Shown: positions 3,539 through 52,835 of the stretch, in pieces
How the letters are laid out: each line of letters starts with the position of its first letter
Position numbering within the stretch: the first letter of the stretch is position 1
Source of the DNA: an uncultured Candidatus Saccharibacteria bacterium
GTDB lineage: Bacteria; Patescibacteriota; Minisyncoccia; UBA6257; 1-14-0-10-44-23
Reading direction: 5' to 3'
Length of the DNA stretch: 64,000 nucleotides
NCBI GenBank assembly: GCA_964549935.1
Contig: CAZJVT010000002.1
Span: 191,066-255,065, forward strand
Notes under the pieces: generated by a model
Seen by the model: the letters and a program-made list of their open reading frames with translations, nothing else
Told to the model about the DNA's origin: nothing
Databases searched by the model: none
Position numbers and translations under genes: made by a program

Positions 3539-3886
3539 ATGAAATGGCTCACCTCGATTTTCTTGCTTCTTGGAACTAAGCTCGCTTTTGCCGCAGACAA
3601 AGTCACTCTTCCCAATCCCCTCTGCCCTGAAAATGATCCGACCTGTAAAACCTCTCTCCCGGATATCATTCACAGCGTTTTTCATTTTTTGGCAATCGAC
3701 ATTGGCCCGCTTGTGGTCATCATTTTCGTACTTGTTGGCGCCTACCAGATGATTTTTAGCGGCGGCGAAGCGGAAAAATTCACAAAAGGTAAAACTACTA
3801 TCGTTTACACCGTCGTCGGTTACGCCGTCCTCTTAATGGCCAATGGTATTGCCGCGATTATCCAAACAATCTTAACCGGTAAGTAA
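3539..3886 (+). CDS. TrbC/VirB2-like T4SS-type pilin, paralog 2
   Basis: start taken as the ATG at 3539 (the ORF-track start at 3527 is GTG); motif AYQMIFSGGEAEKFTKGKTTIVYTVVGYAVL. Confidence 0.6.
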   Translation: MKWLTSIFLLLGTKLAFAADKVTLPNPLCPENDPTCKTSLPDIIHSVFHFLAIDIGPLVVIIFVLVGAYQMIFSGGEAEKFTKGKTTIVYTVVGYAVLLMANGIAAIIQTILTGK

Positions 3887-8046: not shown

Positions 8047-8142
8047 TACGTGTAACGTTAGACGTGAAACTTGCAACTTTCAAAACCGCGACGCCAGTCG
8101 CGGTTTTGATTTTGGGGCGAAAATAAGCGATACTACAACAAT

Positions 8143-8223
8143 GCTGGGGTGGCGAAATGGCAGACGCATCAGCCTTAGGAGCTGAAGCCGCGAGGCATGT
8201 GGGTTCAAGTCCCACCCCCAGCA
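8143..8223 (+). tRNA. tRNA-Leu (anticodon TAG)
   Basis: manual fold: acceptor GCTGGGG/CCCCAGC; anticodon stem TCAGC/GCTGA with loop CTTAGGA; 13-nt variable arm; T-arm GTGGG-TTCAAGT-CCCAC; discriminator A; CCA not encoded. Confidence 0.8.
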
Positions 8224-8390: not shown

Positions 8391-8464
8391 AACGAAAAAG
8401 TCCGGTCTTTGCTGGTTCTTTTTTGTCTTTGAGCTGACTAACTGTCGACTGACTAACCGACAAC

Positions 8465-10664: not shown

Positions 10665-11750
10665 TTATTCCTCTACTGCTGGCTTTTCTAATGCTTTAAC
10701 TTCAAAGCCGACGCCCTCGCCGGTAATGCGCATCACGTCCTTGTCTACCTTGCCGAGCTCTTTGTACGCCGCGTTGTAGTGATTGACCGTCGTACTCATC
10801 GCGTTGCCGAGCTTGAGCATATAGTCTTCGTGGGCCTTCCAGTGCTTCTGGAGCTCGCCGATACGCTTAACAATGTCCTGGGTCGCCTGTTCGATCTTAA
10901 AGGCTTTAAGGCCATACAAGACCGATTGCAGATAGGCAGCGAAGGTCGTCGGCGAGACGATAATCACCTTCTTTTCGTTATAGGCGTAATCGATAAGGTT
11001 GCGGGTGTTGACCTTAACGGCGCCAACCTCATTAACGAGCAGGTCGTAGTAAATCCCTTCGGCCGGGATAAACATAAAGGCAAACGGCAATGTCCCCTCC
11101 TCGGAGCGGATGTACTTTGCGGTCTCGTCGATGCGCTTTTTTAAATCATTTTTAAAATCTTTTTCGAGCTCCTCGCGCTGCTTGTCGTCAATTGCCTGCG
11201 TCACGCGGTTGTAGTTGTCGAGACTGAACTTTGCGTCGACAGGAATGATGCCGTCTTTCGTAATTATCGCGGCGTCGACAACCTCTCCGTTTTTAAACGG
11301 ATACTGCATTTTATACGAACCCGGCGGCAGAATGTTGCTCAAGATGAGTTCTAGAGAGGCCTCACCGAGGTTGCCGCGCTGCTTTTGGTGCTTCAAAACT
11401 TTTTCGAGGTTCGCGAGCTGCTCGGCAATCGTCATAAACTGCTTCGTCTGCTCGTTGGTCTTCGTCTGCTCACGAGTAACGTCTACCAGCGACTTGTTCA
11501 TCTGCTCGCTGATTTCACGCAGGAGTTGCTGACTCTGACTAAACTGGTGCCGCACGCTCTCGGTCATTTCTTTACGGCTCTCCCCGAGCTTGCTATCAAC
11601 CGCCTGGGTAAGTTGCATCAGCTGCTGCTGAAGCAGCAGCATGCCCTCACCCTCTTCTTTGGGCGCGGCAGAACGACGCATATATATAAGAAGGATAGCA
11701 AAGCCACCGATAAGAACGAGCAATAAAATGCCGAAATAAACAGGGGTCAT
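10665..11750 (-). CDS. rmuC: DNA recombination protein RmuC
   Basis: N-terminal transmembrane helix, long coiled coil, C-terminal RmuC nuclease-like region (VDAAIITKDGIIPVDAKF..FAFMFIPAEGIYYDLL); 361 aa. Confidence 0.7.
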   Translation of the reverse strand: MTPVYFGILLLVLIGGFAILLIYMRRSAAPKEEGEGMLLLQQQLMQLTQAVDSKLGESRKEMTESVRHQFSQSQQLLREISEQMNKSLVDVTREQTKTNEQTKQFMTIAEQLANLEKVLKHQKQRGNLGEASLELILSNILPPGSYKMQYPFKNGEVVDAAIITKDGIIPVDAKFSLDNYNRVTQAIDDKQREELEKDFKNDLKKRIDETAKYIRSEEGTLPFAFMFIPAEGIYYDLLVNEVGAVKVNTRNLIDYAYNEKKVIIVSPTTFAAYLQSVLYGLKAFKIEQATQDIVKRIGELQKHWKAHEDYMLKLGNAMSTTVNHYNAAYKELGKVDKDVMRITGEGVGFEVKALEKPAVEE

Positions 11751-12106
11751 ACTTTTAGTATAGCTCCATTTGAATAAATAAACGAAAACCCGCCTGAGCC
11801 ATGCATATCTTGACGACCTTTTTCCTTAACGACCCTGGCCGAAGTGATTTCCCCCACTTTGATATGCCTTGCCACTATTGCAGGAAATAGTGCCTGCGCA
11901 AAACATATCGCTGCGAGATGATCGAAACGGCTATTCCGAGTCGCCGGTCATGCTGATCTCCCCACCTCCTGACTACCCATAGGTCACTCGTCAAGCTTAG
12001 GAAAGGTGCGATGGCCCAAACGGGCTATCCCTATTATAAAGCTCACCGCGGAAAAGGCAAATGGCTTAAAATCGCAAACTGTTATTTAAGAGTGAATAAG
12101 TACCTC

Positions 12107-12679
12107 TTACCTTGCGAGGTAGATAATAAAGCCAACGGCGATCGTGTTGATAACGAAGGAAACGAGCATAATGTAGCGCATTCGCAGGTGCGTAAGTCCC
12201 ATCATGCTAAGGCCAAGTTCATCCGGCAGTGGTGAGGCTATAACAAGGGCGCCGAAAAAGATTGCGGCAACTCGGATGAGCCACGAGGAGGCAAATTTTT
12301 CGAATGTCCCATGTGTCCTTTTGACGAGATACTCGAAAAGCTCATCGAGCATGCTGACTTTAACGGCGGCGATTAATCCGGCGTCGCCCAGCATCGCTCC
12401 CACTCCCCCCAGGAGCGCGATACTGTAGAGTGGCAGCGCGCCATCACGGGCAAGAACGATAAAAATTGCCAACGAGAGTGGCGTCGTTGAAAACGAAGTG
12501 AAGCAAAGCCCCCCGATAAAGGCCATCAGCAGCAGCCACCCGCCGCCAAGAGCCGCCCACTTATCGAGTAATCCGGAAACGACAAGCAGGTATGATGCCG
12601 TAATTATAAACGCAACGAGCACAAAGTAGGTCATGTGCCGCAGCGTGAAAATCTTTTTAAAAATTTGCCCTGTTGTCAT
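12107..12679 (-). CDS. DedA/VTT-family-like integral membrane protein
   Basis: 190 aa with 4-5 transmembrane helices and Gly-rich membrane segments; family assignment is tentative. Confidence 0.4.
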   Translation of the reverse strand: MTTGQIFKKIFTLRHMTYFVLVAFIITASYLLVVSGLLDKWAALGGGWLLLMAFIGGLCFTSFSTTPLSLAIFIVLARDGALPLYSIALLGGVGAMLGDAGLIAAVKVSMLDELFEYLVKRTHGTFEKFASSWLIRVAAIFFGALVIASPLPDELGLSMMGLTHLRMRYIMLVSFVINTIAVGFIIYLAR

Positions 12680-12720: not shown

Positions 12721-14271
12721 TTACGCTTCAAGCAACGGCAACAGGCTCGTTCCGGTCATTTCGGCGGGCTTTGGGATTTTGAGCAAATCTAAAATCGTCG
12801 GCGCAACGTCAGAAAGAATACCAATGGCACCTTCGGCGGAGACCTGCGCCATCCGTGCCTCATGCTTAAACTCCGGACCGACAACGTAGATAGGCACCGG
12901 GCTCGGATCGTGGGTCGTCTCCGGGCTGCCCGTCATTGCGTCTAGCATCACCTCAACATTGCCGTGATCTGCAGTCACGACTAAGTAGCTCCCCGTCTCC
13001 TCGCAGGCTTTGACGATGCGCCCGAGCTGCTCGTCGACGGTCTGGGCGGCAATAATGGCGGCGTTAAAGTTTCCGGTATGTGCAACCATGTCGGCGTTGG
13101 CAAAGTTTAAAACGACAACGTCATACGTGTGATTAGCAATCGCATCGACAACCTGGTCGGCAATCGCCGCAGCCATCATCTGGGGTTCTAAGTCGTGCCG
13201 CTCGACGTTACGCGAAGGAATCAAAACTTTATTCTGCCCCGGGAACTGCTCGTCGCGATATCCGTTAAAAAAATACGTCACGTGGGCATACTTTTCCGTC
13301 TCGGCAATTGAAAGTTGCTTAAGTCCGGCGTCTGAAAGAACTTTGCCAAGCGGCTGACTGACGTCCTCCGGCGGAAAAGCGACCGGCACCTTAAACGTCT
13401 TTGTATATTCGGTCATCGTCGCGACAAACAGATTCTCAAACTTCTTAACTGGGAACTTGTCGAAATCCTTTTCTATAAAGGAAGCGGCGATTTGGCGGAT
13501 GCTGTCTTCACGAAAATCACAAAAAACTAACGCATCGCCGTCGACAATTGGATGCCCTATGGCAATCGGCAAAAAGTACTCATCACTTTGGTCTATCTCG
13601 TAAAACTTCCCAACCGCCTTATCAACGGGCACATCTGTCGGCGCGAGATTTCCGACCATTGCATCGTAGGCTTTCTGCGTACGATCCCAGTGACTATCGC
13701 GATCAAGCGCAAAGTGACGCCCGGTGAGACTCGCCAAGGTGCCAACGCCGGCATTAGCCGTCACCTCGCTCAACTTCGTCAAAAGCTGCAATACAGAATG
13801 CGGCCTACTGTCCTTGCCGTCAGCGAACAAATGCAAATTAACTTGTTTCACACCGTTTGCCGCCGCGACTTCAATCAGGGTCTGCAAATGCTCAAAAGCT
13901 GCATGAATAGTCCCCTCGGTCAAAAGGCTGGCGATATTTAAAGCCGAATTATTTTTCTTAACATGCTCGAAGGCCTGCAAAAAAACAGGATTCTTCTGAA
14001 ACTCCCCGCGCTGTATAGCCAGTGTGATACGCGGATAGTGTTGATACAAAACCTTCCCGGCGCCAATTGTCAGGTGGCCGACTTCAGAGTTGCCGACATC
14101 GGTCCATGGCAGCCCCACAGAGATACCGGAAGCCTGGAGTGATCCAGCTAAGTAGTGCTGGCTAAGATATGGGATAGTCGAAAGGCTCGCCTTGGCAAGC
14201 GGATTCGTAAAATCCTGTTTCCCTACTCCCCAGCCGTCTAAAATTGCTAAAACCAACATCGGTCGCTCCAT
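12721..14271 (-). CDS. gpmI: 2,3-bisphosphoglycerate-independent phosphoglycerate mutase
   Basis: 516 aa; LAILDGWGVG N-terminus and VTADHGNVEVMLD metal-binding motif. Confidence 0.85.
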   Translation of the reverse strand: MERPMLVLAILDGWGVGKQDFTNPLAKASLSTIPYLSQHYLAGSLQASGISVGLPWTDVGNSEVGHLTIGAGKVLYQHYPRITLAIQRGEFQKNPVFLQAFEHVKKNNSALNIASLLTEGTIHAAFEHLQTLIEVAAANGVKQVNLHLFADGKDSRPHSVLQLLTKLSEVTANAGVGTLASLTGRHFALDRDSHWDRTQKAYDAMVGNLAPTDVPVDKAVGKFYEIDQSDEYFLPIAIGHPIVDGDALVFCDFREDSIRQIAASFIEKDFDKFPVKKFENLFVATMTEYTKTFKVPVAFPPEDVSQPLGKVLSDAGLKQLSIAETEKYAHVTYFFNGYRDEQFPGQNKVLIPSRNVERHDLEPQMMAAAIADQVVDAIANHTYDVVVLNFANADMVAHTGNFNAAIIAAQTVDEQLGRIVKACEETGSYLVVTADHGNVEVMLDAMTGSPETTHDPSPVPIYVVGPEFKHEARMAQVSAEGAIGILSDVAPTILDLLKIPKPAEMTGTSLLPLLEA

Positions 14272-19136: not shown

Positions 19137-19180
19137 GTATACCCCCACACCAACCTATCGGTTGGTGTGGGGGTATACTT
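19137..19180. repeat. Perfect 19-bp-stem hairpin GTATACCCCCACACCAACC/GGTTGGTGTGGGGGTATAC (copy 1)
   Basis: inverted repeat with a 4-nt loop between the transporter stop and the pilin-like gene start; the arm sequence recurs at 27626..27712. Confidence 0.7.
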
Positions 19181-19186
19181 ATCTAT

Positions 19187-20914
19187 ATGCAGAAACTCTC
19201 TAGCCGGCGGGGCTTTACCCTGCTCGAGCTTCTTATAACCATCGGGATTATCGCCGGACTCGCAACTGTGACTATCGTGGCCATTAATCCGAAGCGCAAC
19301 TTCAGCCAAGCTCAAAATACCGCTCGCCAAGGAGATTTACAAAAGATTCTGGGCGCCTTAAATCAATATGCGATAGAAAAAAACGGCTCCTTCCCTGCAG
19401 GGGTTACAACTACACTGCAAATGTTGGGCACGGCGACCTCGAGCTGCAATGTTGTTTGCGGACCGGATGCGCTGGTTACAATTGTAAGTAACTTTATCGA
19501 CAATAGCCTGCAAACCTTTGCCTCCGGAACACTTGCTAACACGCAGTGGAATCCCGCAACGAATGCCCTCGAACTTACGAATGCCGGGCTAACCGCCAAA
19601 ACCGGAACTTATACCAGCTCAATAAAAGATGCGAACGCTAGCCAAAACTGGACTACCCTTACCTGGACGCCGTATGCGCCATATAACAAAGAGTTACCGA
19701 ATGCCGCCGCGACAGAGACCGGCTACGTCACCGGTAATGCGGCAATGCCCGGCAATAAATTGCTGATGCATATGAACGAATCAAGCGGTGCCATCGTAGA
19801 CTCGTCCGGAAACAATCTTAACGGAACCGTAAACGGGGGCATCACCTACAACGTGACGGGGAAATTAAAAACTGCTCTCTCCTGGTCAGGCAGCAACAAC
19901 AACTATGTCTCCATAGCCAATAACGCCAATCTCAACCTGCCAAACACCGGCGGCAGCGTTGTCTTGTGGATGCAGCCAACTATCAACCTGGCTGCCAACA
20001 CCGGTATGGGCGTCATCCGCAAGCCTGACTATGGCGGCAACCTCAATACTCCCGGCGGCTACGGCATCGAAATCTTCCGCGCAGTCAGCAACGGGCCCCA
20101 AAACATAAAAGCACACCTCGGCTGGAACAACGGAGGGGCGAACTCGCAGCAAACGCTGGTTGGTGCGACGAATCTTGTAAGCGGTAGCTGGTATCACGTT
20201 GCGCTCACCTGGAATGCAACTACTATGACAATCTACGTCAACGGTGCGCAAGACACTTCGGCAGCTAGGGTTAACGGCCAACTCAACTGGGCCAGCAACA
20301 CCGCCAACCTGGACATAGCCCGCAACTCCAACTCCATCAGCAGTAACCGCGCCTGGTACGCCGGTGCGCTCGACGAAATAGCGCTCTTTAACCGCATGCT
20401 TACGGCGACGGAGGTGAACGATTTCTATAAACGTGGCTCGCTAAAGCTTCGGCAGCAGGTGCGCTCTTGCGACGACGCGCTCTGCGCCGGTGAGATTTTC
20501 ATCGGTCCCGGCGGAACCGGCGCCACATATTATGATGACCTGAACAACACGACAAATGCCCCGCCGAGCATGACGCTTTCTAATCTTGCCACCAACCGCT
20601 ATTTCCAATACAAAACTTACTTTGACACAGACACCGCCTCCTACGGCCCCGGGCTTTCAAGCATCAGCGGGGCTAATAATGGCAGCGGCACTATGAATAC
20701 AACCTCGACAGCGACGACCGCCAACAGCTGCCTCAACCTCGCACCAACCTTTGTGCCGAGCTACCTCCCCTCAATGCCGTTTGACCCGCTCGTCGGCTCG
20801 CTAGCAAAAACATATTACGCTGTTCAGAGCATCGATAACGGAGCAAATGGCATAGGCCTGATCATTCGCGCCTGTTATCCTGAACTCGGTCAACCGATAG
20901 AGACTAGACAATAA
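19187..20914 (+). CDS. Type IV pilin-like protein with prepilin N-methylation motif and LamG/ConA-like domain
   Basis: N-terminus RRGFTLLELLITIGIIAGLA (class III signal peptide); central region ..SGSWYHVALTWNATTMTIYVNGAQ.. lectin/LamG-like; 575 aa. Confidence 0.7.
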   Translation: MQKLSSRRGFTLLELLITIGIIAGLATVTIVAINPKRNFSQAQNTARQGDLQKILGALNQYAIEKNGSFPAGVTTTLQMLGTATSSCNVVCGPDALVTIVSNFIDNSLQTFASGTLANTQWNPATNALELTNAGLTAKTGTYTSSIKDANASQNWTTLTWTPYAPYNKELPNAAATETGYVTGNAAMPGNKLLMHMNESSGAIVDSSGNNLNGTVNGGITYNVTGKLKTALSWSGSNNNYVSIANNANLNLPNTGGSVVLWMQPTINLAANTGMGVIRKPDYGGNLNTPGGYGIEIFRAVSNGPQNIKAHLGWNNGGANSQQTLVGATNLVSGSWYHVALTWNATTMTIYVNGAQDTSAARVNGQLNWASNTANLDIARNSNSISSNRAWYAGALDEIALFNRMLTATEVNDFYKRGSLKLRQQVRSCDDALCAGEIFIGPGGTGATYYDDLNNTTNAPPSMTLSNLATNRYFQYKTYFDTDTASYGPGLSSISGANNGSGTMNTTSTATTANSCLNLAPTFVPSYLPSMPFDPLVGSLAKTYYAVQSIDNGANGIGLIIRACYPELGQPIETRQ

Positions 20915-38558: not shown

Positions 38559-40007
38559 ATGTCGGCAACTACTCCAAAACTTGAAAAGCGCTCTCCTGTC
38601 GTCGTTGTGATGGGTCACGTAGACCACGGCAAAACCACGCTCTTAGACACCATCCGCAAGAGCAACGTCGCAGCTAAGGAGGCCGGGGGTATTACCCAGG
38701 CCGTTGGTGCCTACGAAATCATCCACTCCGGCAACCGCATCACCTTTATCGACACCCCGGGACACGAGGCGTTTACAAAGATGCGTAGCCGCGGTGCCTC
38801 AATCGCCGATATCGCCATTCTCGTCGTCGCCGCTGACGATGGCGTGAGCGAACAGACCAAAGACGCTATCCGCATCATCAAGGAGACCAAGCTCCCCTAC
38901 GTCGTTGCGATTAACAAGATTGATAAGGAGGGAGCGGATGTTTTGAAAGTTAAAAACGGACTCGCGCAAGAAGAAATCTTCGTCGAAGGCTTTGGCGGCG
39001 ACGTCTCCTGTCAGGAGATCTCGGCCAAAACCGGCCAGGGTATCACCGACCTGCTCGACATCATTACGCTCACCGCCGAAGTCGAGGGTTTGACCTACGA
39101 CCCGGCTGCGCCGGCCACCGGATTTGTCCTCGAGGCCTTTATGAACGCCCAGACCGGTATCACCGCCAGCGTCGTGCTTAAAAACGGCACCCTCAAGGCG
39201 GGTGAGGAAATCGGTACCGCCACCACGCGCGGCAAGGTCCGCGGTTTGCGCACCTTCGCCGGTAAGGCTGAAAAAGAAATGACTCCGAGCGCACCGGCCG
39301 TCATCTTAGGCTTTGAAACTATCCCCCGCGCCGGCGAGGCTTTTGGTACCGGAGCCGCAATGCCGAAACTTGTTGCCCAGGCCGGCAAAGAAATGCCGAC
39401 GCAGGCCGAATACGAACAGAAGCGCTTGTCCTTCGTCGTCAAAGCAGACGTCGCCGGTTCACTCGAGGCCTTAATGGACCAGATTAAAAAGATTAAGACG
39501 CCGGATCACACCACGCGCGTAACTATTCTTGGCGAAGGCGTTGGCGACATTACCGATGGCGATGCGAAGCTCGCCGGCTCAACCGGTTCCTTCATCGTCG
39601 GCTTTAACGTCAAGCAAACCCCGGCGGCTAAAACCTTAATCAGCTCACAAAAAATCAAAGTCTTCTCGTCCAAAATTATTTACGAGCTCTTAAAAGAAAT
39701 CGAAGAGGAGTTTAGCGGACGCAAGAAGCAAATAGTCGTCGGTGACCTGGACATCCTCAAGGTCTTTGATCAGAAAAACAACGGTGCTCAAATTATCGGT
39801 GGCAAAGTCGTCGCCGGCCTCATCAAGAATCAAAGCACCGTCGAGGTACACCGCGGCGACAAAGAGCTCGGCACCGGCCGTATTGCCAACCTCCAGCAGA
39901 GTAAAAAAGACGTCGAATCAGTCGCTATGGGCCTGGAGTGCGGTATGCTCTTTAGCTCACAGGTTATGATCGAAAAGGGAGACCATCTCATTTCTCGTCC
40001 GGACTAG
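38559..40007 (+). CDS. infB: Translation initiation factor IF-2 (short form lacking N-terminal domains)
   Basis: GTPase motifs [28 protein letters not shown]; 482 aa. Confidence 0.9.
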
Positions 40008-40101
40008 GACGAGAAATGAATTTCCAATTATCAATTTCCAATTTCTAATTAATTTTGGAATTGACCAATTGAACACTTAATTGAAAATTGTAAATTAAGA
40101 A

Positions 40102-40494
40102 TTGAAAATTAATGAACCTATGCAGTATCCTCCAAAGCCCTACAAGCGTAATGTCCGCGTCAACGAACTCATCCAGCAGGAGCTGGGTAAACTTATTTTG
40201 CGCGATATCGAGCTTACCGGCGGCATCATGACGATTACCGGCGTGGATGTCACCGAAAAGCTGGATTACGCTCGCGTCAAAGTCAGCGTCCTCCCCGCTT
40301 CACTCGAACGAAAGGCTCTTGGCTTGCTCCAAGACAACGTCGGCCGCCTGCAACACACCTTACTGCGCGTCATCAACATCAAGCCGATGCCGCACTTACA
40401 GTTTGAGATTGATAAAGGCGCCGAGGTAGCAGCAAAGATGGAAAAAGTATTCATGGAGGGAGAGGCCAGTGGTGAGATTGAAAAAGAAGCGTAA
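40102..40494 (+). CDS. rbfA: Ribosome-binding factor A
   Basis: RVNELIQQELGKLIL..VTEKLDYARVKVSVL..KPMPHLQFEID; start may be the internal Met at 40120. Confidence 0.8.
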   Translation: MKINEPMQYPPKPYKRNVRVNELIQQELGKLILRDIELTGGIMTITGVDVTEKLDYARVKVSVLPASLERKALGLLQDNVGRLQHTLLRVINIKPMPHLQFEIDKGAEVAAKMEKVFMEGEASGEIEKEA

Positions 40495-47597: not shown

Positions 47598-48626
47598 TTA
47601 CAACGTCATCGTTGAATCTGCTACAAACTTATACTTCTTTTTGCGGAGCTTGCCCATATAGGCTGCGGCGGCGATCATCGCGGCGTTGTCGGTGTTGTAC
47701 TCATTTTCCGGCGCGGCAAAGTTAATCCCCCACTTCGTGCAGTCGGCGGCGAGCTGTTTGCGCAACTCTTTGTTTGCGGCGACGCCACCACAAACAAACA
47801 CGGTGCGGGCGCCAAACTCACGAGCGGCACGCATCGTTTTTTTCACGAGCACATCTAACACGGCCTGCTGGAAACTGGCGGCGATGTTTTCTTTCTTCGT
47901 ATTCTTATGATCGCGGAGGTAATACAAAACCGAGGTTTTGATACCAGAAAAACTGAACTCGTAGTTCTTGTCTTTGAGCATCGGACGCGGAAACTCAATC
48001 GCCTTTGCGTCACCCTTAACGGCTAATTTTGAAATCTCCGGCCCACCCGGGTATGGCAACTTGAGCAGTCTCGCAACCTTGTCAAAAGCCTCACCTGCGG
48101 CGTCATCGCGCGTCTCCCCCAAATTAGTCCACTTCGTATATGAATCCATTTTTACTAAAATTGTGTGCCCCCCGCTCACTACTAATCCAATTGCGGGGAA
48201 GTCCAACTGTCTACTGTCTACTGACTGCTGTCTACTGTCTTTAGCGTTTAGTAAAACGCTAAAGACATGCCCCTCCATGTGATTAGCGCCAAGCAGCGGC
48301 TTCTTAAGGGTCTTGCTAAGCTCCTGCGCGAAGGTAATGCCCGCCCAGAGTGCCGGCTCAAGACCTGGACCGACGGTGACGGCGATAGCGTCAATCTCTT
48401 TAGCGGTTTTTGAAAGCCTGAGCTCGCTCAAAAGCTTTGGCAGGTTGGCAATGTGTTCGCGCTTGGCGATATTGGGCACTACCCCGCCCCACTCACGGTG
48501 CAACTCGATTTGCGAGTTAACCAGATTTTTTAAAACTTTAAACTGCGGATTTTTTATCCCGCCGGAGCACTCGACTATCGAGAGCGCTGTTTCATCGCAA
48601 CTTGTTTCAATTGATAGGATTTTCAT
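47598..48626 (-). CDS. tsaD: tRNA N6-adenosine threonylcarbamoyltransferase TsaD (Kae1/Gcp)
   Basis: MKILSIETSCDETALSIVE.., HMEGH.., VVSGGHT..; contains an 11-aa in-frame insertion DSRQQSVDSRQ encoded by a TAG-rich repeat. Confidence 0.85.
   Translation of the reverse strand: MKILSIETSCDETALSIVECSGGIKNPQFKVLKNLVNSQIELHREWGGVVPNIAKREHIANLPKLLSELRLSKTAKEIDAIAVTVGPGLEPALWAGITFAQELSKTLKKPLLGANHMEGHVFSVLLNAKDSRQQSVDSRQLDFPAIGLVVSGGHTILVKMDSYTKWTNLGETRDDAAGEAFDKVARLLKLPYPGGPEISKLAVKGDAKAIEFPRPMLKDKNYEFSFSGIKTSVLYYLRDHKNTKKENIAASFQQAVLDVLVKKTMRAAREFGARTVFVCGGVAANKELRKQLAADCTKWGINFAAPENEYNTDNAAMIAAAAYMGKLRKKKYKFVADSTMTL
48207..48264. repeat. TAG-rich repeat (gacagtagacagcagtcagtagacagtagacag on the coding strand) plus adjacent perfect 11-bp-stem hairpin, both inside the tsaD coding region
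   Basis: ctgtctactgtctactgactgctgtctactgtc followed by ctttagcgttt-agta-aaacgctaaag; same motif family as 51366..51402 and 52251..52355. Confidence 0.65.
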
Positions 48627-48634
48627 ACTGAACC

Positions 48635-48662
48635 AAAAACCCGGCACAGGGCCGGGTTTTTG
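48635..48662 (-). terminator. Rho-independent terminator after rpsI
   Basis: minus strand aacccggccc-tgtg-ccgggtttttggtt. Confidence 0.6.
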
Positions 48663-49133: not shown

Positions 49134-49183
49134 ATTTTTTCGATCGTAAATCGTGTAACGTTAAACGTTTTAAGTTTCACGTT

Positions 49184-51365: not shown

Positions 51366-51402
51366 ACTGGTAGTAGATAGTAGTTAGTAGACAGTAGTCA
51401 GG
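51366..51402. repeat. TAG-rich repeat copy in the rpsK-rpsD spacer
   Basis: tagtagatagtagttagtagacagtagtcagg. Confidence 0.6.
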
Positions 51403-52250: not shown

Positions 52251-52355
52251 GTTGGGTAGTAGTTAGTAGAAAGTAGACAGTAGTTAGGGTTGGTTATGCT
52301 AGTTTTTAGTAGTCTTTCCTGCTATCTACTGACTACTATCTACTAGCTCCTGCTT
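52251..52355. repeat. Two inverted TAG-rich repeat copies forming a long imperfect hairpin in the rpmJ-rpsM spacer
   Basis: tagtagttagtagaaagtagacagtagttag ... ctatctactgactactatctactag. Confidence 0.6.
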
Positions 52356-52692: not shown

Positions 52693-52835
52693 TGATTGAG
52701 AGAGTATACACGAGAGCTAAAAAAGTGTCAACAGGAATCGAATAAGGAATAATGAATTAGGAATTAGGTTACAAACAACAGAGGCGGCACGGGACGTGCC
52801 GTCCTGTTGCCGCCCCAAGATGCTGAGCCGAAGTC

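Follow-up and report, generated by a model that had tools for sequence, protein, structure and literature searches.

Heptamer direct repeats with the unit TAACTGA have been described in marine Beggiatoaceae, some cyanobacteria and Bacteroidetes (MacGregor 2015, PMC4679880). Here we describe a degenerate array of 7-nt units that lies in frame within tsaD, the gene for tRNA N6-adenosine threonylcarbamoyltransferase, beside a perfect hairpin. The gene is part of a 64,000-nt stretch of contig CAZJVT010000002.1 (positions 191,066 to 255,065) from an uncultured Candidatus Saccharibacteria bacterium, and we refer to this whole stretch as the window. The tsaD array is one instance of a genome- and clade-wide population of 7-nt arrays rather than a one-off insertion. 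These arrays are mostly located in leaders that lack a Shine-Dalgarno motif, and they can persist in a few protein loops that tolerate extra residues.

By behaviour, the TAACTGA repeats are the closest described system. In both cases tandem 7-nt units form short arrays (2-6 copies) that are mostly intergenic, lie a few nucleotides from start codons lacking a Shine-Dalgarno motif and are present in ribosomal-protein operons, S4 being among the genes that they precede. Both also carry stop codons in all frames of one strand, with a minority of copies found within open reading frames (ORFs) in the readable orientation. In contrast to TAACTGA, the arrays described here have other unit sequences, built from a conserved core and variable positions, and several unit families are present per genome, whereas the Beggiatoa genome holds essentially only TAACTGA. 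In addition, tsaD reads the stop-bearing strand, which is made readable by a TAG-to-CAG change, and the intragenic copies are found at recurrent hotspots within the internal loops of a conserved enzyme rather than chiefly at the ends of proteins. The present host also belongs to another phylum, the Patescibacteria.

Passages of PMC4692102 cite an excess of heptameric simple repeats in bacteria together with the cyanobacterial STRR sequences, giving GGGAATC in Xanthomonas and GGGGAYT in Nostoc as examples. As presented in those passages, the STRR sequences share with our arrays the specific over-representation of period 7, an intergenic location, some inverted pairs able to form stem-loops, and a length and sequence that vary between close relatives. 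They are, however, G-rich or made of other units and often long and perfect, and the same passages report them neither in frame in conserved enzymes nor alongside a hairpin with covarying arms in coding sequence. The arrays of tsaD and the window display the features by which the STRR and TAACTGA types are recognised, namely head-to-tail 7-nt units, an excess of period 7 and a mostly intergenic position near starts without a Shine-Dalgarno motif. Their units match none of the described families compared (TAACTGA, STRR1-3 and GGGAATC), and the resemblance is one of behaviour, not of sequence. No paper on such arrays in Patescibacteria was found in a limited literature collection, which is not proof of absence.

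Repeats can also enter genes as elements of fixed form. Ogata and colleagues are reported to have described, in 2000, the Rickettsia palindromic elements (RPEs), repeats inserted in frame into protein-coding genes. These are reportedly 100-150-bp palindromic elements of defined length and sequence. RPEs resemble the present case in being a dispersed repeat family found both between genes and in frame within genes, housekeeping genes included, and in being tolerated through landing in surface-exposed segments. They differ from it in form, since tsaD holds a variable-length 7-nt tandem array and its palindrome is made from the host's own upstream codons. Compared with MITE- and RPE-type elements, the tsaD insert resides in frame in a predicted surface-exposed segment, but array lengths vary from 26 to 35 nt, and neither the insert nor the spacer copies are bordered by terminal inverted repeats or a target duplication. 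RPEs are mentioned in passages of PMC10969869 and PMC1779305.

Two further systems involve palindromes. The REP/RAYT system consists of many copies of GTAG-tagged palindromes, with the tag at the 5' end, and a RAYT gene (PMC3733652). The heptamer unit in tsaD contains GTAG, and we considered and rejected this assignment, as the palindrome is unique in the window and GTAG follows the 3' arm instead of preceding the stem. No Y1 transposase was detected with Pfam in ten ORFs that flank the ribosomal cluster; the whole genome was not searched. Quasi-palindrome template-switch mutagenesis is known at hotspots in E. coli and yeast (PMC7202029), and its effects on coding sequences have been described (PMC8604942). 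As proposed for tsaD, the arms of an imperfect inverted repeat are homogenised, giving multi-nucleotide and apparently compensatory coding changes. The tsaD case differs in that we infer the operation of this process, and in that complementarity persisting over many lineages could equally reflect selection.

An in-frame heptamer array within tsaD

The ORF at 47598..48626 on the minus strand encodes 342 amino acids from its ATG and was assigned to TsaD using the TIGR03723 and PF00814 families. Its TIGR03723 profile score of 375.8 bits, covering residues 3-324, is above the curated equivalog cutoff of 296.1, and among solved PDB chains the Thermotoga maritima TsaD structures matched the query with an E value of 2e-85. 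Despite the insert, the metal-binding HxxxH motif, the SGGHT strand and the C-terminal NTDNA motif are all intact, and H116, H120, S151-T155 and N311-D313 are invariant alignment columns.

The array occupies 48207..48239 on the minus strand, and we examined it with Tandem Repeats Finder (TRF), in a codon view and in an AlphaFold2 model. The plus strand of 48207-48239 is CTGTCTACTGTCTACTGACTGCTGTCTACTGTC. Read on the coding strand (48239..48207), the same 33 nt resolve into GACAGTA GACAGCA GTCAGTA GACAGTA GACAG, or 4.7 copies of GACAGTA, and give the peptide DSRQQSVDSRQ (D130-Q140). TRF called a period of 7 with 5.0 copies over 48206-48240. The array is degenerate, with three of its five units differing, and the conserved core of the unit is AGTAG. 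A perfect 13-nt stretch occurs twice at a distance of 21 nt, which reflects a higher-order period of 21 nt in which three units make seven codons.

Because 7 and 3 have no common factor, TAG is expected in frame once per three units. Unit 2, where this would occur, has CAG, and at the next in-frame TAG position the array ends in TTG. TAG stops are present in both other frames, and the zero frame is open throughout. The reading frame is therefore preserved by the total length of 33 nt and by the TAG-to-CAG change at unit 2. An AlphaFold2 model built from a 37-sequence alignment (mean predicted local distance difference test score, pLDDT, of 85.6) shows a helix at H116-L125 followed by coil at residues 126-144, with pLDDT below 50 at 129-137. 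The 33 stop-free nucleotides thus encode coil of pLDDT <50, and on this model the insert is predicted to be a disordered hydrophilic surface loop directly after the metal-binding HxxxH helix.

The initial annotation of this DNA had pointed to an in-frame TAG-rich repeat in tsaD belonging to the same family as repeats in the ribosomal-operon spacers, which motif matches confirmed. It had also counted 11 extra residues. The insertion is real, but its size is 10 residues relative to T. maritima TsaD, where the alignment gap falls exactly at the array, and the loop is about 8 residues longer than that of the closest array-free orthologue (P0002, 85% identity). Likewise, the 27-nt consensus proposed at that time reflected a genuine repeat family, whose true unit is 7 nt long and consists of CTACT plus two variable bases.

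The same unit family precedes ribosomal-protein genes

We searched the window for the unit family using two patterns. With at most 3 mismatches, GTAGACAGTAGACAG gave 13 matches against 0.71 expected, and the (CTACTNN)n motif CTACTNNCTACTNNCTACT with at most 2 mismatches gave 10 matches against 0.02 expected. All family matches fall within four arrays (tsaD, 51371-51401, 52257-52287 and 52319-52351), except for a lone match to the first pattern with 3 mismatches at 8442-8456. In the spacers, which form the leaders of rpsD and rpsM, CUACU is on the mRNA strand, and the tsaD mRNA carries the complementary AGUAG.

The array in the rpsK-rpsD spacer (51371..51401, minus strand; TRF and motif matches) reads CTGACTA CTGTCTA CTAACTA CTATCTA CTAC on the mRNA strand and ends 5 nt before the ATG of rpsD, with no Shine-Dalgarno motif. 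This spacer is 37 nt long in the window versus 5 nt in the relatives L008 and L011 (L numbers denote the related loci). The second array (52257..52287, minus strand; TRF and motif matches) is (CTACTNN)n on the mRNA strand, lies directly upstream of the rpsM ATG (52250) and has orthologous rpsM-proximal arrays in L008 and L011. Its inverted partner, found by motif matches in the rpmJ-rpsM spacer at 52319..52351 (plus strand), has AGTAG units on the mRNA strand. These two inverted arrays can pair, with a fold of -29.8 kcal/mol and a z-score of -2.6.

An inverted pair of the TAG family is conserved in the rpmJ-rpsM spacer of three genomes (52251-52355 in the window, 4751-4835 in L008 and 2757-2856 in L011). 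The predicted fold is a long imperfect hairpin that would sequester the region just before the rpsM start codon, and the structure may be a leader of the S13-S11-S4 operon.

The tsaD gene has rpsI upstream and valS downstream. Its ATG lies 7 nt past a terminator-like hairpin of rpsI (48634-48662; spacer region 48627-48662), and a promoter and terminator scan around the gene revealed no promoter or Shine-Dalgarno motif of its own upstream. Expression of tsaD may therefore depend on read-through from the ribosomal-protein operon.

Heptamer arrays recur at three loop sites of TsaD

Protein scans of genome and metagenome collections gave 7 and 5 loci, respectively, and DNA was compared for 23 tsaD orthologues. 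TsaD ranges from 331 to 386 amino acids in the clade, with the variation concentrated at a few sites. Three loop hotspots carry in-frame heptamer arrays, of differing unit families across the clade: site 1 at residues 67-80, site 2 after HMEGHxxSxLL, which is the site of the window array, and site 4 at residues 240-255.

At site 2, L010 has AACAGTA GACAGCA GTTAGTA GATAGTA GACAG (ACAGTAG family) and L008 has GACAGCA AACAGCA AGCAGTA AACAGTA AACAG (ACAGCAA). Both arrays are homologous to that of the window, being 33 nt long with CAG or CAA at unit 2. Residues and repeat go together in these relatives, as L010 (NSRQQLVDSRQ) and L008 (DSKQQAVNSKQ) keep the heptamers at the DNA level. The observation that the initial annotation had named as a refutation, close relatives with these residues but no repeat similarity, was therefore not made. 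Other orthologues fill the same site differently. L002 and L003 carry AATTTTC x5, L001 has ACTAAAA x4 followed by an inverted GTTTAGA x4, L023 has AAGGAAT-type units, L025 has CGAGTAG, and L026 has GCATAAC with an inverted partner. The site is occupied by a long in-frame hairpin in L024, and no array is present there in L018-L022 and L005.

Arrays are also found at sites 1 and 4 in many orthologues. One family can serve two sites of a single gene: L023 encodes KELGIKNKELGI at site 1 and again at site 2, and L008 has AGTAGAC at site 1. L014 holds a perfect 4-copy array. Some of these families have relatives between genes of the window. The AATTTTC family at site 2 of L002 and L003 is a relative of the infB-rbfA array, and the GGAATTA family, related to the array upstream of infA, is found at sites 1 and 2 in L023 and at site 1 in L002.

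In a distance tree of TsaD, array presence is patchy. The nearest neighbours of the window sequence, L018 and L020, are without an array, and L010 and L008 share it. This pattern points to an insert that is old and has been repeatedly lost or replaced, rather than to a recent hit on an essential gene. The initial annotation had considered the entry of a dispersed repeat into an essential gene unusual; the insert is neither a single event nor a young one, and it predates the split of at least three lineages (82-85% TsaD identity). Arrays are identical in L010, L011 and L012, from three metagenomes, and in L008 and L009, from two sequencing runs; the identity and homology of arrays across independent assemblies argue against both misassembly and hypermutability.

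Several other features were observed in the relatives. Site 1 of L010 tsaD (~3680-3760) contains a long in-frame palindromic insertion, for example DPHTITKGGGKKLPKATPSFGVG. Together with those at site 2 of L024 and L026, such long in-frame palindromes fold at -48 to -51 kcal/mol, and in L026 two heptamer arrays in inverted orientation make up the palindrome. In L021, a reverse transcriptase (RVT_1) and bAvd, a pair that is a hallmark of diversity-generating retroelements, lie directly downstream of tsaD at 11051-12469. In-frame heptamer arrays are also present in valS of relatives (L022 2832-2865; L024 3379-3408), and the phenomenon is therefore not confined to tsaD.

A hairpin with covarying arms adjoins the array

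A perfect hairpin with a 14-bp stem and a 4-nt loop spans 48236..48267 and was characterised by inverted-repeat search, folding and covariation analysis. Its arms are TGTCTTTAGCGTTT at 48236-48249 and AAACGCTAAAGACA at 48254-48267. An 11-bp perfect inverted repeat had been reported here by the initial annotation; a perfect hairpin does adjoin the array, and its true length is 14 bp. On the coding strand, the 5' arm comprises the conserved helix codons (H)VFSV(L), and the 3' arm codes for NAKD, the residues with which the loop begins, and continues into the GACA that opens the array. For the hairpin, the RNA folding energy is -27.6 kcal/mol (z = -4.7). This is the sole perfect hairpin of at least 10 bp within bona fide coding sequence in the window, whose other strong hairpins lie between genes and for the most part look like terminators, and its arm is unique in the window. 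The right arm AACGCTAAAGACA (48254-48267) resembles the conserved site-1 coding sequence ACCGCTAAAGAGA (48395-48408), located 159 nt away in the same gene; with 2 extra matches against 0.59 expected, this likeness is probably due to chance.

When orthologue folds were compared with right-arm shuffles, nine of the first 18 orthologues folded better at p ≤ 0.0175, as did the later-added L024-L026 at p ≤ 0.03. The arm sequences differ between lineages, and two registers occur: the first, centred between two Leu codons, in the window, L010, L008, L023, L024, L025, L026 and L013, and the second, 3 nt further on, in L001-L003 and L016. We evaluated covariation in a gapless codon alignment of 14 sequences using the structure of the window. 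Here 70% of cells were paired, compared with 35-46% when partners were slid, and double-sided changes were seen in 23 cells, where shuffles gave 12.6 and none of 500 reached the observed count. The covariation score was 0.276 against 0.209 in shuffles (1 of 500 as high), although all of these statistics are inflated by the structure having been derived from one of the aligned sequences and by the sequences being related. Columns 16 and 21, two synonymous Leu positions, hold T-A three times and C-G six times. Covariation was also observed between the third base of the Val/Ile codon and the choice of N or D, and between the third base of the Phe codon and the choice of K or E. Among mismatches, sense-strand G-U outnumbered A-C by 7 to 4.

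The hairpin is absent in L018-L021, L005 and L015, which have short loops and are also without a site-2 array. Flanking DNA folds strongly in only 6 of 49 arrays, four of which are tsaD site 2, and we rejected on this count the idea of hairpin plus array as a general inserted module. Hairpins at tsaD site 1 occur in only about 4 of 23 orthologues.

Other assignments for the hairpin were tried and rejected. It is not an intrinsic terminator, as a terminator scan called it on neither strand and no T run follows the stem. In a programmed -1 frameshift signal, a stem-loop or pseudoknot lies 5-9 nt downstream of a slippery heptamer; in tsaD the order is the opposite, with the hairpin preceding the repeats on the mRNA, and no stop interrupts the zero frame. 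No Rfam family matched it at the gathering score (Rfam 15). The initial annotation had suggested a structural RNA signal; this could still apply to the hairpin alone, whose arms covary, whereas the terminator, frameshift signal and Rfam families are excluded.

Period-7 arrays across the window and related loci

A periodicity scan of the window returned 14 period-7 arrays at the lower threshold, against 1.2 expected, and 10 at the next threshold, against 0.3 expected. Periods 4-6 and 8-12 were near chance. The excess extends to the relatives, where 233 kb from 20 related loci contained 48 period-7 arrays against 1.0 expected, and none were detected in one Xenorhabdus locus or in one low-GC Wolfebacteria locus. 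Most of the arrays sit in spacers just upstream of start codons. Differences between units cluster in 2-3 adjacent positions beside an invariant core of 4-5 nt; the two most variable positions account for a 0.87 share of mismatches, compared with 0.80 under the null (null maximum 0.87). Unit families are shared (≥6/7 identity) by 19% of within-genome pairs versus 9% of pairs between genomes (p = 0.011). In the loci with gene calls, tsaD contributes five of the seven fully intragenic arrays while representing about 7% of the coding DNA, a count biased by two of those loci having been picked because they carry the insert.

The window holds several unit families, including CTACTNN, AATTNNN, GAATNAG, AACGTTT and others. 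In the infB-rbfA spacer, TRF and the periodicity scan identified an AATTTCC x4 array (40019-40050, plus strand) and an inverted AATTGAA x4 array (40079-40110, plus strand). The hairpin scan added a 13-bp hairpin at 39988..40019 (plus strand) whose 5' arm is made of the last infB codons, whose 3' arm lies past the stop codon, and which abuts the AATTTCC array. This intergenic layout of hairpin and array is the same as in tsaD. The infB-rbfA spacer is 95 nt in the window versus 2 nt in the relatives L008 and L020. A period-7 leader of AACGTTT-type units lies between rplM and rpsI (49143..49183, minus strand; periodicity scan), and a further array upstream of infA (52740..52768, minus strand; TRF and periodicity scan) reads GAATAAG GAATAAT GAATTAG GAATTAG on the plus strand.

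A Shine-Dalgarno-like motif was found in only 12 of 65 window genes. In many genes a TATACT or TATAAT box precedes the ATG by 6-9 nt, for example in those at 14271(-), 19187(+), 43983(-), 44727(-), 52692(-) and 61921(-). Together these data suggest widespread leaderless or Shine-Dalgarno-independent initiation in this organism.

Two other hairpins of the window were observed close to gene starts. At 8055-8109, a period-7 array (ACGTTAG ACGTGAA ACTTGCA ...) adjoins a perfect hairpin of 13 bp immediately upstream of the tRNA at 8143-8223. At 19137-19178, the 3' arm of a perfect 19-bp hairpin ends in GGTATAC, which overlaps a -10-like box belonging to the gene that starts at 19187. A scan of the whole window against Rfam 15 identified six tRNAs only.

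Discussion

We favour, with a probability of roughly 55%, an explanation in which a slippage-prone degenerate heptamer array is tolerated in a permissive loop of TsaD beside a maintained quasi-palindrome. Replication slippage and template switching would generate the arrays and drive their turnover, with partial homogenisation among loci within a genome. Those in coding DNA would be filtered by selection for an intact frame, the absence of stops and a hydrophilic, harmless peptide, and the array peptide itself may be a passenger linker. The free 3' arm of the hairpin, at the start of the variable loop, would be kept complementary to the protein-constrained 5' arm by intrastrand template-switch correction at a non-B-DNA hotspot, and the same hotspot would promote slippage in the adjacent array. 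It is established that template switching homogenises the arms of inverted repeats (PMC7202029, PMC8604942).

A different explanation, which we regard as possible though doubtful, is that selection maintains the hairpin, perhaps together with the array, as an element acting in cis within the tsaD mRNA or within DNA. It could act as a stabilising or processing stem, as a protein-binding site, or as a partner of the (CUACUNN)n leaders of rpsD and rpsM, which have the same orientation as tsaD and may share one long transcript with it. The covariation test favours selection through its pairing, double changes and score, as do the covarying synonymous Leu columns, the Val and Phe third bases that change with N/D and K/E, and the occurrence of a second hairpin register in L001-L003 and L016. 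The hairpin is also the only strong one in the coding sequences of the window, the core-plus-spacer design of the array is reminiscent of serial binding motifs, complementarity between the tsaD array and the antisense of the rpsD leader extends to 19 of 22 nt, and the inverted TAG-array pair upstream of rpsM is conserved in three genomes. Set against this, the hairpin matches no Rfam family, is not terminator-like and is in the wrong order for a -1 frameshift; the ratio of G-U to A-C mismatches is not decisive; and six close orthologues manage without the hairpin, which is thus dispensable. The statistics are inflated, and template switching yields the same covariation without any function. 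Both template-switch correction and selection on an mRNA stem fit the covariation equally. We give template switching a modest edge because close relatives are without the hairpin, because no context suggestive of a function was found, and because arms built from flanking DNA also occur at site 1 and at the infB end.

Several observations nevertheless weigh against tolerated slippage with template switching. Pure local slippage leaves the conserved core of 4-5 nt with its 2-3 variable positions unexplained, and likewise the excess sharing of unit families within genomes. Tolerance alone may not explain the concentration of intragenic arrays in tsaD, subject to the bias of that count by locus choice. 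Covariation at two synonymous Leu positions and in 6-8 of the 14 pairs is a classic signature of a selected structure, and a genome-wide mutational bias towards palindromes is not evident, with no other equally strong hairpin in the coding sequences of the window. The features that slippage does not account for (core-plus-spacer units, family sharing and the concentration in tsaD) allow for a process of copying or for a factor acting in trans. We consider it unlikely, though worth stating, that an undescribed process or trans-acting factor in these Patescibacteria seeds and homogenises 7-nt arrays, with a core of 4-5 nt and 2-3 free bases, over leaders without a Shine-Dalgarno motif and over protein loops. 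The covarying hairpin would then be a functional mRNA element, with the AGUAG array tying tsaD expression to the CUACU leaders of the upstream ribosomal-protein genes. More improbable still is that a mini-element of the MITE, REP or RPE type, mobile or copied, reached tsaD from an intergenic copy by means of a trans-acting enzyme or ectopic templated repair. One unit family does occupy non-homologous loci within a genome, as in the four arrays of the window, the L023 family at tsaD sites 1 and 2 and an intergenic site, and the L024 family at three coding sites; sharing within genomes exceeds that between them, and the rpsK-rpsD and infB-rbfA spacers exist in filled and empty states. However, neither 48207-48239 nor the spacer copies have fixed length or ends, terminal inverted repeats or a target-site duplication. 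Filled and empty tsaD alleles differ by no clean insertion (AKDSRQQSVDSRQLD versus ESPDIIQ), the hairpin arm is host coding sequence that is unique in the window, and the insert is old and common to three lineages. Pfam detected no transposase, RAYT or reverse transcriptase in the ten ORFs flanking the ribosomal cluster. The mobile mini-element put forward by the initial annotation thus fared poorly, and we found no support for the recombination scar that it offered as an alternative. It is highly improbable that the array is a contingency locus in which gain or loss of a single 7-nt unit shifts the frame and switches TsaD on or off. Seven is not a multiple of three, the other two frames contain TAG stops, and L014 has a perfect 4-copy array, but the units of the tsaD array are degenerate, the array is identical in L010-L012 and in L008 and L009, the homologous 33-nt length is kept across lineages at 82-85% identity, and tsaD is a housekeeping gene rather than a gene for a surface structure. 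Least credible of all is an assembly or amplification artefact, such as a chimera formed by fold-back or the collapse of a repeat. Multiple-displacement amplification is known to generate inverted duplications, but the ORF is unbroken, two contigs of different origin record the protein, and homologous arrays and hairpins with substitutions are present in many independent assemblies.

The interest of the locus rests mainly on the recurrent TsaD hotspots and on a covarying hairpin in coding sequence. Heptamer inserts inflate length variation among orthologues, and annotators may take them for misassemblies or frameshifts. The locus amounts to an unusually clean natural experiment, in which three loops of one conserved enzyme have been refilled repeatedly by different unit families with a covarying coding hairpin alongside. 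Sequence data alone could test whether the arrays spread as copies or form where they stand, whether a factor binds them, and whether palindromes in coding regions are kept by template switching or by selection. Heptamer arrays near start codons are known from few phyla, and the tsaD case extends them to the Patescibacteria, whose translation signals appear to be largely without Shine-Dalgarno motifs.

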